This document shows, in pieces, positions 56,817 through 63,760 of a DNA stretch of 64,000 nt (its first letter is position 1; each line of letters starts with the position of its first letter). The translations under genes were made by a program, and so were the position numbers. The notes beneath the pieces are model-generated. The model had not been told where the DNA came from. It saw nothing but the letters and a program-made list of their open reading frames with translations, and did no database searches. Source of the DNA: Dictyostelium discoideum (lineage: Eukaryota). The stretch lies in NCBI GenBank assembly GCA_000004695.1, contig CM000155.2:2080001-2144000 (forward strand), in the 5' to 3' direction.

Positions 56817-57953
56817 ATGTTTTCCTCGATTTATGGCTATTTCAACTCTGAAGGTGATAGTAATCAACAACAAAATAATAATAATAATAGTAATAATAAT
56901 TTAAAAGAAAGTGTATTTCATTCAGGTATATCAAATGGTATAATTGAAACAGTTGGTAATACACCATTGATTAGAATTAAAAGTTTATCAGAAGCAACAG
57001 GTTGTGAAATTTATGGTAAAGCAGAATTTATGAATCCAGGTGGTAGTCCAAAGGATAGAGTTGCAAGAGAGATTATATTGGATGGTGAAAAGAAAGGATT
57101 ATTAAAGAAAGGATCAACCATTGTAGAAGCAACTGCCGGTAGTACAGGTATTTCTTTGACAATGTTAGGTAAATCGAGGGGATACAATGTACAATTGTTT
57201 ATACCTGATAATGTATCAAAAGAGAAAGTTGACCTGTTGGAGATGTTGGGTGCTGAAACTAAAATAGTGCCAATTGTCGGTATGAACAATGCCAACCATT
57301 TCATGCATTGCGCATATCAAAGATGTTTAGGTGACGATATGGCATTCTACGCCAACCAATTCGATAATCTCTCAAATTTCAACGCACATTATAATGGTAC
57401 AGCCAAAGAGATTTGGGAGCAAACTAAGGGTGATGTGGATGGGTTTGTCGCAGCAGCTGGTACTGGTGGCACAGTGGCTGGTATAAGTAGTTATTTAAAA
57501 GAGGTGAATCCAAATATTCAAAATTGGTTAATTGATCCACCAGGTTCAGGTTTGTATAGTTTGGTAAATACTGGTGTTATATTTCATCCAAAAGATAGAT
57601 TAGTTGTTGAAAAACTTGGACCACGTTCATTTTATGAAGGTGTTGGTGTAAATAAAAAAACTGAAAATTTTAATAAAGCCTCTTTAAATGGTGCTTTCCG
57701 TGGTACAGAAGAGGAAGGTGTTGATATGGCTCATTATTTATTAAAGCATGATGGTTTATTTTTAGGTGGTTCTTCAGCTTTAAATTGTGTTGGCGCAGTT
57801 AAATTGGCTCGTAAATTAGGTCCTGGTAAAACAATTGTAACAGTCTTATGTGATTCTGGTCATCGTTACACAAGTAGATTATATAGTAAATCTTGGTTAA
57901 ATGATCATAATTTTCAAGTTTCAGATTTATCAAATTTAAATTTTGTAAAATAA
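56817..57953 (+). CDS. PLP-dependent cysteine synthase / cystathionine beta-synthase family enzyme
   Basis: GNTPLIRIKSLSEATGCEIYGKAEFMNPGGSPKDRVAREIILDGEKKGLLKKGSTIVEATAGSTGISLTMLG (lysine-PLP site K.EF.NPGGS.KDR). 378 aa with an N/Q-rich N-terminal extension. Confidence 0.75.
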   Translation: MFSSIYGYFNSEGDSNQQQNNNNNSNNNLKESVFHSGISNGIIETVGNTPLIRIKSLSEATGCEIYGKAEFMNPGGSPKDRVAREIILDGEKKGLLKKGSTIVEATAGSTGISLTMLGKSRGYNVQLFIPDNVSKEKVDLLEMLGAETKIVPIVGMNNANHFMHCAYQRCLGDDMAFYANQFDNLSNFNAHYNGTAKEIWEQTKGDVDGFVAAAGTGGTVAGISSYLKEVNPNIQNWLIDPPGSGLYSLVNTGVIFHPKDRLVVEKLGPRSFYEGVGVNKKTENFNKASLNGAFRGTEEEGVDMAHYLLKHDGLFLGGSSALNCVGAVKLARKLGPGKTIVTVLCDSGHRYTSRLYSKSWLNDHNFQVSDLSNLNFVK

Positions 57954-58129: not shown

Positions 58130-58255
58130 CTGAAATCGATTATATTATTGTGTTTAAATGGTATTGATGTACATTGCAATACCACAAATTGAGACCATCA
58201 TTTGTTAAATAATTTGATACCTCATCAAATGATACTGTTGAATCCGCTTATTAAA
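58130..58255 (-). repeat. Exon-like paralogous block (STVSFDEVSNYLTNDGLNLWYCNVHQYHLNTII*), probably a pseudo-exon remnant
   Basis: About 80% nucleotide identity to 63669-63760 in the coding frame. There is no room for upstream exons before LRAT-like copy A ends at 58630. Confidence 0.4.
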
Positions 58256-58629: not shown

Positions 58630-59349
58630 TTATGATTGGTTAGTTTGAATAGATGCAGATTTTTGAATTTTAAATATATGTAATAAGAATGGGTAATTAT
58701 CGCATGGTGATTGAACAGTTTCCGGCCATTTTAAATGTAATTCTTCTTCCAAACAGTATTTAGCAAAGTTGTGGCATTTATTCTTTCTACCCCATGCGTT
58801 GTCTCCACCACATTTTTCTTTAATGAAGATATAAAATGATTCATGGAAACGGTTACGGATATTCATGTCTCTATCACAGTTATCGCCTTCAGCATATTCT
58901 TTAGTTTAAGTCAACAATGTTATACCCACTTTTGCAGTCTTAGTCAATTTTGTTGAATTAGAACTTCTTTCAGTTACTTGGAAACCAGTTTCAATAGAAT
59001 TCATTGCATCCTTCATTGCCAAATGAATTTCTAAACCTACTGGGTGATCATCATCATCAGATTCACCATTTTTATCTATAATAATAGAATAGTGACCAAC
59101 ATTTGTACCAACGTATTCCTCAAATGCCCCTTTTGTAAATTCTGGCACCAATTAATTGATCATTGAATTTGAGTAGACGTTCGAATTATATATTTTTTTA
59201 AAAATCATTAATTTCTATTTATATTATTATATTTAAATAATATATTTCTAAAAAAATATACTTACTAAATAAACATCAAGTACTCTTTCTTGGTTTACTT
59301 AAACCAATGACATTTCTTTTTCTTTTTCTTTAAAAAAATAATTACCCAT
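58630..59349 (-). pseudogene. Disabled copy of the LRAT/NC-domain-like gene (array member A)
   Basis: Same two-exon layout as members B and C. It has an in-frame TAA in exon 1 (LVE>LV*), a 1-bp deletion early in exon 2 (SSDELIGA region) and an in-frame TAA (KALLIKT>GITLLT*T). Otherwise about 90% identical. Confidence 0.7.
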
Positions 59350-59604
59350 TTTTTTTTTTTATTTAAACTTTTTTTTATTATACAAATAATTAATAAAAAA
59401 AAAAAAAAAAAAAAAAAAAATTAAAAAAAAAAAAAAAACCTCATTCATTTTCAATATTACCATTTAATATTATTTAAATTTATTAAAATAAAATAAAATA
59501 AAATAATTACTATATAACATTTATTAATAAAAACAAAACCAATGATTTTTTCATTTATTTATTGTTGTAATTGATAAATTATAAAAAAATAATTTTTGAT
59601 TGAT

Positions 59605-60333
59605 TTATGATTGGTTAGTTTGAATAGAAGCAGATTTTTGAATTTTTAATATATCTAATAAGAATGGGTAATTATCGCATGGTGATTGAACAGTTTCCGG
59701 CCATTTTAAATGTAATTCTTCTTCCAAACAGTATTTAGCAAAGTTGTGGCAGTTATTCTTTCTACCCCATGCGTTGTCTCCACCACATATTTCTTTAATG
59801 AAGGTATAAAATGATTCATGGAAACGGTTACGGATATTAATGTCTCTATCACAGTCATCGCCTTCAACATATTCTTTAGTTTTAATCAACAATGCTTTAC
59901 CAACTTTTACAGTCTTAATCAATTTTGTTGAATTAGAACTTCTTTGGGTTACTTGGAAACCAGTTTCAATAGAATTCATTGCATCCTTCATTACCAAATG
60001 AATCTCTAAACCTACTGGGTGATCATCATCATCAGATTCGCCATTTTTATCTATAATAATAGAATAGTGACCTGCATTTGTACCGATGTATTCTTCAACT
60101 GTACCCTTTTTGTAAATTCTAGCACCTATTAATTCATCACTTGAGTTTGAGTAGACGTTCTATATTATATATATATATTTTATAAAACCATTAGTTTCTA
60201 TTTATATTATTAAAATTAAATAATATTTTTTTTAAAAAAATAAACATACTAAATAAACATCAAGTACTCTTTCTTGGTTTACTTCAACCAATGACATTTC
60301 TTTTTCTTTTTCTTTAAAAAAATAATTACCCAT
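59605..60333 (-). CDS. LRAT/HRASLS-like NC-domain (NlpC/P60 superfamily, His-His-Cys) protein, array member B. 2 exons: 60333..60250 and 60159..59605
   Basis: Exon 1 is MGNYFFKEKEKEMSLVEVNQERVLDVYL with a GTATGT donor; 90-nt intron. Exon 2 is NVYSNSSDELIGARIYKKGTVEEYIGTNAGHYSIIIDKNGESDDDDHPVGLEIHLVM...CGGDNAWGRKNNCHNFAKYC.... The HYSII...EIHLV and NCHNF motifs parallel the H-box (HWA.Y.G..VIHL) and NCEHF catalytic Cys of LRAT-like proteins. Confidence 0.6.
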
Positions 60334-60643
60334 TTTTTTTTTTTTTAATATATACTCCTTTTTTTTTTGTACAAATAAAAAAAAAAAAAAAAAAAAAAAC
60401 AAAAAAATAAAACAAAAATTAAAAAAAAAAAAAAAAAAGTAAAATATGTTTTACATATTTCTTTTTTAAATTTATAATATGAATCAACCATTGATAAAAA
60501 AAATATTTTACCACTTATAATTTTTTTTTAAAAAAAAAAAAAATTAAATAAAAACCCTTTTATTAATAAAAACAAAACCAATGATTTTTTTATTTATTTA
60601 TTGTTGTATATGATAAATTATAAAAAAATAATTTTTGATTGAT

Positions 60644-61377
60644 TTATGATGATTGGTTAGTTTGAATAGATGCAGATTTTTGAATTTTTAATGTATCTAA
60701 TAAGAATGGGTAATTATCGCATGGTGATTGAACAGTTTCCGGCCATTTTAAATGTAATTCTTCTTCCAAACAGTATTTAGCAAAGTTGTGGCAGTTATTC
60801 TTTCTACCCCATGAGTTGTCTCCACCACATATTTCTTTAATGAAGGTATAAAATGATTCATGGAAACGGTTACCGATAATAGCTTTTCTATCATAATCAT
60901 CGCCTTCAACATATTCTTTAGTTTTAATCAACAATGCTTTACCCACTTTAACAGTTCTAATTAATTTTGTTGAATTAGAACTTCTTTCAGATTCTTTGAA
61001 ACCAGTTTCAATAGAATTCATTGCATCCTTCATTACCAAATGAATTTCTAAACCTACTGGGTGATCATCATCGTCAGATTCGCCATTTCTATCTATAATA
61101 ATAGAATAGTGACCTGCATTTGTACCGATGTATTCTTCAACTGCACCCTTTTTGTAAATTCTTGCACCTATTAATTCATCACTTGAGTTTGAGTAGACGT
61201 TCTATATTATATATATATATATTTTATTAAATCATTAGTTTCTATTTATATTATTAAAATTAAATAATATTTTTTTAAAAAAAATAAACATACTAAATAA
61301 ACATCAAGTACTCTTTCTTGGTTTACTTCAACCAATGACATTTCTTTTTCTTTTTCTTTAAAAAAATAATTACCCAT
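60644..61377 (-). CDS. LRAT/HRASLS-like NC-domain protein, array member C. 2 exons: 61377..61294 and 61201..60644
   Basis: Same structure as member B (offset about 1044 bp), 92-nt intron. Sequence ...HYSIIIDRNGESDDDDHPVGLEIHLVM...NSWGRKNNCHNFAKYC. Confidence 0.6.
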
Positions 61378-62124: not shown

Positions 62125-63225
62125 TTAACTAGACGAAACAACACCATAAAATGAAAAACCAATAACCATCAATGTTGATAATGTTATGATTACAATTGAG
62201 TAGATCGAAGGTTTCATATAACCTTTTTTAATATATTTTATAACAGTTCTACATCTTGTTAAACCAACAGCTATTAATACAAGACCAAATAAAAAGTAAG
62301 CTATTGTTACAATTATTGTTGAAGTTGTGAAACCTAATTTTGAGATTAAACCAACACCTAAACCAATGACAGCCATACCAGTTCTAGAATAACCAGCTAA
62401 TGATCTATCCACTGCACATATATCCTCCCTAATTAATTCGATATCATCCATTTCCATTAACAATTTAGGTGGTATTAAATATCTTTTAGCTTTTTCAATA
62501 TTTTTTGTTGATTTCTTTAATATTGATTTTATTGAACTTTCAGTTAATGATGATTTTAATGATGATGATGACGATGATGATTTTAATGATGATGATGACG
62601 ATGATGATTTTTTTTTTTTTTTAATTTTTGAAAAATCTTTTAATTCAATTCCTTCTTTTTTTTCAATTTTATTTTCTTTATTATCATAATTGTTAGCTTT
62701 TTCATGGCCTTCTTCTTTTTCAATGGTTGGAGGTGATATTGATGGTGGTTTTATAATTGATTTTGCTAATGAATGTCTCAAGACATCCCTATTTTGTTCG
62801 ATATCATCTTGCAAATCTTTATTATCAATTTCATCAATGAATGGAATTTCTTCACCAGTTGATGAGGATAGATCATAATCTGATTCATTTTCATCATCAT
62901 ATGATGATTCTGCTTCTTTTTTATTTTCATCATCACCATCATCATCGTCATCATTCCAATCCGATATTTCACTTCTTTTAATTCTTTTTAATGTTTTCCT
63001 TAAATCTTCTCTACTAGTATATTTTAAGAGTTGATTTAAAATATCATCCTCAACTTCATCATATAATTCATCATCCAATTTTTCATCATCATCATCATCA
63101 CTATTTCTGTCACTTTGTTCTTTTTCTCCTACTTCTTCTTTTTCTTCTTCGCTACTTGGTGGTTCTTCATTAAATTCATTATTTTCATTACCACTTTTAT
63201 AAAGTTTCCTTATCTCACGTTTCAT
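62125..63225 (-). CDS. Hypothetical acidic protein with C-terminal transmembrane helices
   Basis: 366-aa ORF with an in-frame TAG upstream of the ATG. D/E/S-rich N-terminal two-thirds (DDDDDEKLDDELYDEVEDD, SSSSSSSLKSS), then hydrophobic segments (GMAVIGLGVGLISKLGF, IIVTIAYFLFGLVLIAVGL, IYSIVIITLSTLMVIGFSFYGVV). No family recognised. Confidence 0.5.
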   Translation of the reverse strand: MKREIRKLYKSGNENNEFNEEPPSSEEEKEEVGEKEQSDRNSDDDDDEKLDDELYDEVEDDILNQLLKYTSREDLRKTLKRIKRSEISDWNDDDDDGDDENKKEAESSYDDENESDYDLSSSTGEEIPFIDEIDNKDLQDDIEQNRDVLRHSLAKSIIKPPSISPPTIEKEEGHEKANNYDNKENKIEKKEGIELKDFSKIKKKKKSSSSSSSLKSSSSSSSLKSSLTESSIKSILKKSTKNIEKAKRYLIPPKLLMEMDDIELIREDICAVDRSLAGYSRTGMAVIGLGVGLISKLGFTTSTIIVTIAYFLFGLVLIAVGLTRCRTVIKYIKKGYMKPSIYSIVIITLSTLMVIGFSFYGVVSSS

Positions 63226-63419
63226 AGTTAATATTGGTTGAGTTTTTATTGTTTTTTTTTTTTCTACATGAAAAAAAAAAAAAAAATAAAAAAAAAATTA
63301 AAAAAAATATAAAAAAAAATTTTTTTTTTCCTTTTTATTTATTTTTATTCATCTAGTCATAGTTTTCTAATTTTGGAAAATGAAAATAAAAAAATAATGT
63401 TTGAAATTATTTAAATCTT

Positions 63420-63461
<42 letters not shown>

Positions 63462-63668: not shown

Positions 63669-63760
63669 TTACCATGGGAATTTAACATCTGAATACCATC
63701 TATTGACACCATCAGTTGTTAAATAATTTGATACTTCATCAAATGATACAGTTGAATAGA
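63669..63760 (-). CDS. Terminal coding exon of a minus-strand gene whose upstream exons lie beyond the window end (...EDF-YSTVSFDEVSNYLTTDGVNRWYSDVKFPW*)
   Basis: tatatag acceptor at 63762/61 and TAA at 63671-63669. The preceding exon ends ...KEDF with a GTAAGT donor at 63850. A paralogous block lies at 58130-58255. Confidence 0.4.

Follow-up and report, generated by a model that had tools for sequence, protein, structure and literature searches.

Three closely similar genes stand in a row in Dictyostelium discoideum AX4, within a 64,000-nucleotide (nt) stretch of contig CM000155.2 (positions 2,080,001 to 2,144,000 of the forward strand, hereafter the window). This locus raises two questions: which of the three are still working genes, and what kind of protein do they encode? 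An initial annotation had read them as enzymes with an LRAT/NC-type His-His-Cys centre. The reading that we favour, with a probability of about 70%, is that the array arose by triplication in the AX4 lineage, that two copies (B and C) are under purifying selection while the third (A) is a recent pseudogene, and that the proteins are permuted papain-like enzymes confined to dictyostelids and bearing the residues H59, H82 and C165.

The array covers window positions 58630-61377 on the minus strand and consists of three head-to-tail two-exon units in AT-rich DNA. The initial annotation had placed three same-strand, two-exon genes here, and its limits proved exact: 58630 is the last base of the stop codon of copy A and 61377 marks the ATG of copy C. 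Copy A corresponds to DDB_G0292842 (Q54CN6), copy B to DDB_G0292844 (Q54CN5) and copy C to DDB_G0292962 (Q54CN4). In an exact-sequence look-up the translations of B and C were identical to Q54CN5 and Q54CN4 of D. discoideum AX4. Both intact units share a first exon of 84 nt (MGNYFFKEKEKEMSLVEVNQERVLDVYL), an intron of 90-92 nt (GTATGT...TAG) and a second exon of 555-558 nt, and after splicing they encode proteins of 212 amino acids (aa; copy B) and 213 aa (copy C). The features of the array are as follows.

61294..61377, minus strand: copy C exon 1, codons 1-28 (MGNYFFKEKEKEMSLVEVNQERVLDVYL); spliced translation, exact match to Q54CN4
61202..61293, minus strand: copy C intron, 92 nt, GTATGT...TAG; alignment and spliced translation
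60644..61201, minus strand: copy C exon 2 with stop codon, bearing H59, H82 and C165; spliced translation, match to Q54CN4
60334..60643, minus strand: spacer between B and C, part of the repeat unit and made up of B's duplicated promoter (upstream) region and C's 3' flank; repeat families D4-D7
60250..60333, minus strand: copy B exon 1; spliced translation, exact match to Q54CN5
60160..60249, minus strand: copy B intron, 90 nt; alignment and spliced translation
59605..60159, minus strand: copy B exon 2 with stop codon; spliced translation, predicted strands 59-65 and 78-85, then helix 165-176
59350..59604, minus strand: spacer between A and B, made up of A's upstream region in shortened form and B's 3' flank; repeat families, and alignment of the unit to the single-copy locus
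59266..59349, minus strand: former exon 1 of copy A, codon 17 changed from GAA to TAA at 59301-59299
59182..59265, minus strand: former intron of copy A, acceptor AG now CG at 59183-59182
58630..59181, minus strand: former exon 2 of copy A, with two deletions and an AAA to TAA change

The three units could be aligned over about 900 columns with a mean column identity of 93%, promoter and 3' flank included, and their similarity lies far beyond chance. From ATG to ATG the distance is 1044 bp between B and C, as expected from the spacing of about 1040 bp given earlier, but 984 bp between A and B. A tblastn search with B found no further copies in the whole window. Long poly(A)/poly(T) runs (20-45 nt) occur in every intergenic spacer (59360-59440, 60375-60440, 63415-63460 and others); they are typical of Dictyostelium and dominate the output of repeat finders.

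Copies B and C differ in 14 residues, so that the protein identity of 93% is slightly higher than the value of about 90% first estimated for these two intact copies. At the nucleotide level they are 95.3% identical in exon 2, 96.7% in the intron and 89-96% in the flanks, with a synonymous divergence (dS) of 0.086. The ratio of nonsynonymous to synonymous divergence (dN/dS) is 0.37, and we therefore conclude that the pair is under purifying selection. By sequence comparison B and C are the youngest pair of the array, and copy A is the oldest copy. The differences between B and C are concentrated in codons 97-100 and 131-138, where A agrees with B and C stands apart; the copies are therefore mosaics, which points to gene conversion or to a surface that evolves fast in places.

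The origin of the array could be dated relative to two further assemblies, GCA_054859385.1 (‘D. discoideum’) and GCA_054859205.1 (‘D. cf. discoideum’). Each of them has one copy at the syntenic locus, in both cases between a gene with a PALP domain and a gene for a 404/430-aa protein, with flanks that are 86-92% identical to the window. Each unit of the array aligns over about 1 kb with L001, the single-copy locus of GCA_054859385.1 (5740-6741). The window copies are each 83-86% identical to the single syntenic gene, compared with 94-95% among A, B and C. Since both assemblies have one copy, and since this copy is more divergent from the window copies than these are from each other, the triplication must have arisen in the AX4-type lineage after the split. 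Judged by these alignments the array is a lineage-specific tandem triplication, which bears out the recent tandem duplication proposed initially. In a separate observation, the identity of the two assemblies to the window stays within the same 86-92% across the syntenic genes and spacers (54.7-58.1 kb and 62.1-64.0 kb). This divergence is well above that expected for strains of one species, and the two assemblies probably represent cryptic lineages.

Copy A carries five disabling changes relative to B and C: (i) a stop at codon 17, GAA to TAA (59301-59299); (ii) a lost splice acceptor, TAG to TCG (59183-59182); (iii) a 1-bp deletion after 59163; (iv) a 2-bp deletion after 59127, by which the frame is regained 12 codons further on; and (v) a second stop, AAA to TAA (58908-58906). 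Two stops and the 1-bp deletion had been recognized before, whereas the 2-bp deletion and the lost acceptor complete that list. As expected of an unprocessed duplicated pseudogene, copy A retains the intron and the promoter region despite the lesions. Compared to B, exon 2 is 94% identical while the intron is 83% identical, and the A-B dN/dS is 0.42; copy A was therefore constrained for most of its history and has decayed recently. The view that it is a young pseudogene thus stands, given the lesions and an exon identity to B that is still 94%.

This contrasts with the databases, in which copy A is annotated as protein-coding both in AX4 and in a second assembly. Its remaining reading frame does keep H59, H82 and C165, and the dN/dS relative to B would also fit a functional, shortened paralog of 145 aa. 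However, the reference model of DDB_G0292842 needs a 4-nt first exon (ATGG) that is joined across everything up to 59130, and a 66-nt GT...AG ‘intron’ (58964-58899) that removes the second stop together with 22 codons which are coding in B, C and every other relative. The pipeline of that second assembly, faced with the same lesions, predicted another makeshift gene, of 162 aa, and both products would be missing strands 1 and 5, with the invariant G115, from the predicted fold described below. Five independent changes would have to be explained away relative to the gene structure of the family, and we consider a functional copy A extremely improbable. The 145-aa annotation is a contrived model that disguises a pseudogene, and the gene model of DDB_G0292842 should be retired.

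In order to place the proteins, we searched for relatives of B and C. A word-indexed search gave matches in Dictyostelium proteins only, and phmmer with exon 2 of B against 1.8 billion representatives returned 20 proteins at an expectation value (E) of at most 0.001. None of the matches at this threshold is a member from outside the dictyostelids, the named relatives coming from D. firmibasis, Polysphondylium violaceum, Heterostelium album, Cavenderia fasciculata and Synstelium polycarpum. One match, P0022 (1981 aa, 11 matched stretches, E 3e-22), was rejected as a family member and kept out of the alignments: it consists of about 11 near-identical galectin-like repeats of about 180 aa (FHFNPR), and its spurious score is a sum of weak repeat matches, so that phmmer matches with many stretches call for caution. 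All relatives are named ‘hypothetical’ or ‘uncharacterized’ in the databases. For B and C (Q54CN5 and Q54CN4) UniRef gives the automatic name ‘LRAT domain-containing protein’, which suggests an automatic profile match (PROSITE PS51934). A literature search with the three gene identifiers found no paper in the library searched.

An alignment of 24 sequences, 23-42% identical to B, revealed a set of positions that are invariant or at least 90% conserved, namely H59, D65, G78, H82, L83, G115, F148, W159, N164, C165 and W181-P182. In D. cf. discoideum a second subfamily (216 aa, MGNYFFKQQEKEMS...) has three intact members side by side (ACTFIZ_012825-012827), and in AX4 it is represented by no more than a 69-aa truncated model or fragment outside the window (DDB_G0285171). 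Tandem arrays and fragments thus recur in the family, which therefore shows birth-and-death dynamics with strain-specific expansion and decay. The absence of a signal peptide, noted initially, was confirmed for every member, and no member has a transmembrane segment either; the highest 19-residue Kyte-Doolittle mean is 0.43-0.46 in B and C and below 1.5 in all members. An N-myristoylation anchor was considered and is a weak idea at best: 13 of the 22 complete N-termini begin with MG, but MGNYFFK, with which the proteins of the D. discoideum clade begin, does not match the classical pattern G-{EDRKHPFYW}-x(2)-[STAGCN]-{P}, and membrane attachment via the MG N-terminus is speculative.

The kind of protein was also assessed by structure prediction. 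AlphaFold models built from the 24-sequence alignment reached a predicted local distance difference test score (pLDDT) of 77.5 and a predicted template modelling score (pTM) of 0.76, with a core mostly above 90 and five concordant models. The predicted strands lie at residues 25-31, 59-65, 78-85, 93-101 and 108-116, followed by a long helix at 130-152 and by a helix at 165-176 which starts exactly at C165. H59 starts strand 2, and strand 3 contains H82. With both histidines on strands and C165 at the start of a helix, the model therefore has a circularly permuted papain-like arrangement; the features by which the superfamily is recognized, a five-stranded sheet and a strand His preceding a Cys at a helix N-terminus, are both present in it. 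We regard the placement in the circularly permuted papain-like (NlpC/P60-type) superfamily as well supported by the model. The solved structures most similar to it are given below, each with its score.

DeSI-1/PPPDE2 (2wp7), 126 residues aligned: 8.9
TseH: 7.0
CLN5: 6.0
Aichivirus 2A (H-box/NC protein): 5.3
PLAAT4: 5.0
YiiX: 4.5
C92-type peptidase (3kw0): 4.4

For the predicted model the nearest solved structure is thus PPPDE and not LRAT/PLAAT, and the LRAT-type matches appear to lie at noise level. The assignment to the NlpC/P60 superfamily made at the outset agrees with the permuted papain-like fold of the model, although LRAT, the member then named, is not the nearest one and PPPDE is nearer. 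A search of a viral library gave nothing significant.

Several results weigh against this assignment of the proteins. When B, C and every one of the 24 members were scanned against Pfam with hmmscan, neither LRAT (PF04970) nor PPPDE (PF05903) nor NLPC_P60 nor any other recurrent family came up at E up to 10, so the Pfam check recommended earlier for an LRAT or NC domain came out negative. The family profile likewise had no match among PDB sequences at E up to 10. When we compared the family profile by hhalign with human PLAAT3, 10 columns were aligned with a probability of 0.2%, and with DESI1 or a 14-sequence DESI1 alignment 23-24 columns with a probability of 1.3-2%, in each case over the NCxxF stretch only. 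Both reference sequences were exact matches to PDB entries, and the PPPDE profile is shallow, as the DESI1 homologs found were vertebrate orthologs only (at least 72% identity). In Foldseek the model matches DeSI-1 weakly (E 0.32, TM 0.38/0.48), and the third residue of PPPDE, a Tyr, is not kept as Tyr. Finally, the fold assignment depends on a predicted model from just 24 sequences, and a first AlphaFold model from 13 close paralogs had a pLDDT of 38 and was discarded. Single-sequence Pfam and PDB matches of B and C (Apocytochr_F_C, DUF3104, M6P receptor, EscN) were dismissed as noise, and the global mode of hhalign gave meaningless output.

The motifs HYSIIIDKNG, HPVGLEIHLVM and GRKNNCHNFAKYC, on which the LRAT/NC reading had been based, are all present. 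Hhalign puts C165 on the catalytic Cys of both references, C113 of PLAAT3 and C108 of DESI1. A greedily extended alignment, which is not statistically significant, is collinear: DVYLNVY falls on VKLYVYDL of DESI1, H59 on H38 of DESI1 and H23 of PLAAT3, C165 on both nucleophiles, and H82 on H35 of PLAAT3, while DESI1 has Phe at that position. The two histidines are 23 residues apart here versus 12 in PLAAT3. A correspondence of the His/His/Cys set with PLAAT3 is thus possible: it is collinear, and lacks statistical support from sequence alone. The LRAT motif reading therefore holds in so far as H59, H82 and C165 are near-invariant and fall in line with H23, H35 and C113 when forced, but not as a significant profile link.

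Were the proteins genuine LRAT/PLAAT (H-box/NC) members, they would be phospholipase A1/2-acyltransferases which act on membrane phospholipids through a His-His-Cys triad. The order of the three residues and the NC(E/H)xF motif are indeed those of LRAT and PLAAT (HRASLS; PF04970; 4DOT, 7ZOT) and of picornavirus 2A (7ZV6), with which the family is placed in the same permuted NlpC/P60 branch, and the forced alignment sets the three residues on the PLAAT3 triad. PLAAT1-5 and LRAT have a C-terminal hydrophobic membrane anchor; such an anchor is not found here, in agreement with the low Kyte-Doolittle maxima of all members. We consider direct membership unlikely. The fold of the predicted model is instead most like that of DeSI-1 and DeSI-2 (Peptidase C97, PF05903; 2WP7, 3EBQ), and the proteins could be divergent cytosolic isopeptidases (deSUMOylases or deubiquitinases) or S-depalmitoylases of the PPPDE/DeSI or CLN5 type rather than phospholipid enzymes. 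Here the His and the Cys of the catalytic centre H38/Y101/C108 (PMC9012467) align, but where the triad Tyr would be expected, seven residues ahead of the Cys, the family has Ala (A158), followed directly by the conserved W159. The family further differs from PPPDE in its conserved second His (H82), which PPPDE lacks, in a longer strand 4-5 hairpin, in the long helix 130-152 and in its restriction to dictyostelids, and neither Pfam nor hhalign establishes a link. We regard such PPPDE/DeSI- or CLN5-type enzymes as a conceivable but somewhat doubtful reading. CLN5 itself (6R99), a lysosomal Cys-based thioesterase, is a secreted glycoprotein that has a signal peptide and carries an additional domain at its C-terminus, whereas the proteins studied here are much smaller and have no signal peptide. 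TseH (6V98), a Vibrio cholerae effector of the type VI secretion system, YiiX (2IF6) and the C92-type protein (3KW0) are bacterial and target the cell wall or lipid amides; they differ from the family in taxonomic and cellular context and share no detectable sequence similarity with it.

It could also be argued that the motif likeness is coincidental and that the proteins have another fold or a non-catalytic role. Sequence comparison does not link them significantly to any known family, the fold evidence comes from one predicted model, built on a shallow alignment, and the Foldseek E-values exceed 0.1, all of which would fit this explanation. Given the permuted arrangement of the model, we nevertheless consider a coincidence highly unlikely, and we prefer to read the proteins as divergent members of the permuted papain-like superfamily.

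PPPDE (C97), the C92 lipid amidases and LRAT form a permuted branch of the NlpC/P60-like cluster (PMC10318531). PPPDE1/2 and CLN5 have a His-Tyr-Cys centre and show Cys-dependent palmitoyl-thioesterase or S-depalmitoylase activity in vitro, their isopeptidase activity being weak (PMC9012467). By analogy with such relatives we infer a catalytic activity and a substrate class for the family: the products of B and C most likely act as soluble acyltransferases or thiol acyl-hydrolases of the Cys-His type. C165, in the motif NNCHNF at the helix N-terminus, would act as nucleophile and H59 as the general base that activates it, and the third, orienting residue may be H82, as in LRAT, and/or W159, which lies beside the PPPDE Tyr position. 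A thioester acyl-enzyme intermediate would then be resolved by water or by an acceptor, resulting in hydrolysis or acyl transfer. Because the characterised permuted relatives (PPPDE/DeSI, CLN5 and PLAAT/LRAT) act on fatty-acyl esters, thioesters and isopeptides, the likeliest substrates are lipid esters and S-acylated or isopeptide-modified proteins; phospholipid esters, S-acyl proteins and isopeptides are all candidate targets. As signal peptides and transmembrane segments are missing throughout the family, the action is expected in the cytosol.

The genes were already part of the reference annotation and B and C bore the LRAT auto-name. What our analysis adds is independent evidence for the fold, the finding that PPPDE/CLN5 is structurally closer than LRAT, the dictyostelid-only distribution, the lineage-specific triplication and the recognition of DDB_G0292842 as a mis-modelled pseudogene. 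The family is a divergent one of a known kind and not a new kind of system, and the locus is otherwise an ordinary recent tandem duplication followed by decay. As a tentative and rather unlikely extension, the family may form an undescribed dictyostelid-only branch of the permuted NlpC/P60 proteins that combines a PPPDE-like scaffold with an LRAT-like His-His-Cys centre, evolves by rapid birth and death and possibly has a conflict-type role. Tandem arrays, strain-specific copy number, repeated pseudogenisation and the variable surface patch 97-100 and 131-138 would be the signs of such a turnover. If true, this might point to a role in conflict, for instance with bacterial prey or pathogens, whose lipids or lipidated proteins would then be the targets, or between strains, and not to housekeeping lipid metabolism. 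For the ‘hypothetical’ genes DDB_G0292844 and DDB_G0292962, and for their relatives in all dictyostelid groups, which lie outside Pfam, the results provide a structural and mechanistic hypothesis. The true substrates of PPPDE/CLN5 and of LRAT/PLAAT are debated, with isopeptidase, thioesterase and acyltransferase activities under discussion. A family that stands between the two, with two near-identical, putatively active copies in a genetically tractable amoeba, could be a convenient test bed.

The genes next to the array were conserved as well. Downstream, at 56817-57953 on the plus strand, lies a single-exon open reading frame (ORF) of 378 aa whose N-terminus is rich in Asn; PF00291 (PALP) is found in the orthologs of L001 and of L002 (GCA_054859205.1), which indicates a pyridoxal phosphate (PLP) enzyme resembling cysteine synthase or cystathionine beta-synthase. 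Upstream, at 62125-63225 on the minus strand, a 366-aa ORF encodes a very acidic, Ser-rich protein (poly-D/E, poly-S) with hydrophobic C-terminal segments, and its orthologs of 404 and 430 aa had no Pfam match. A 73-nt segment flanks the array on both sides (58171-58243 and 63685-63757, minus strand) with 86% identity and encodes STVSFDEVSNYLT(N/T)DG(L/V)N.WY. Its copy at 58.1-58.5 kb lies in the interval from copy A to the PALP gene and resembles a paralogous exon or fragment that has not been annotated; this copy is largely missing in L001 and present in L002. The copy at 63.6-64.0 kb is the 3' end of a neighbouring gene, whose L001 ortholog has a BB_PF domain (PF18063).

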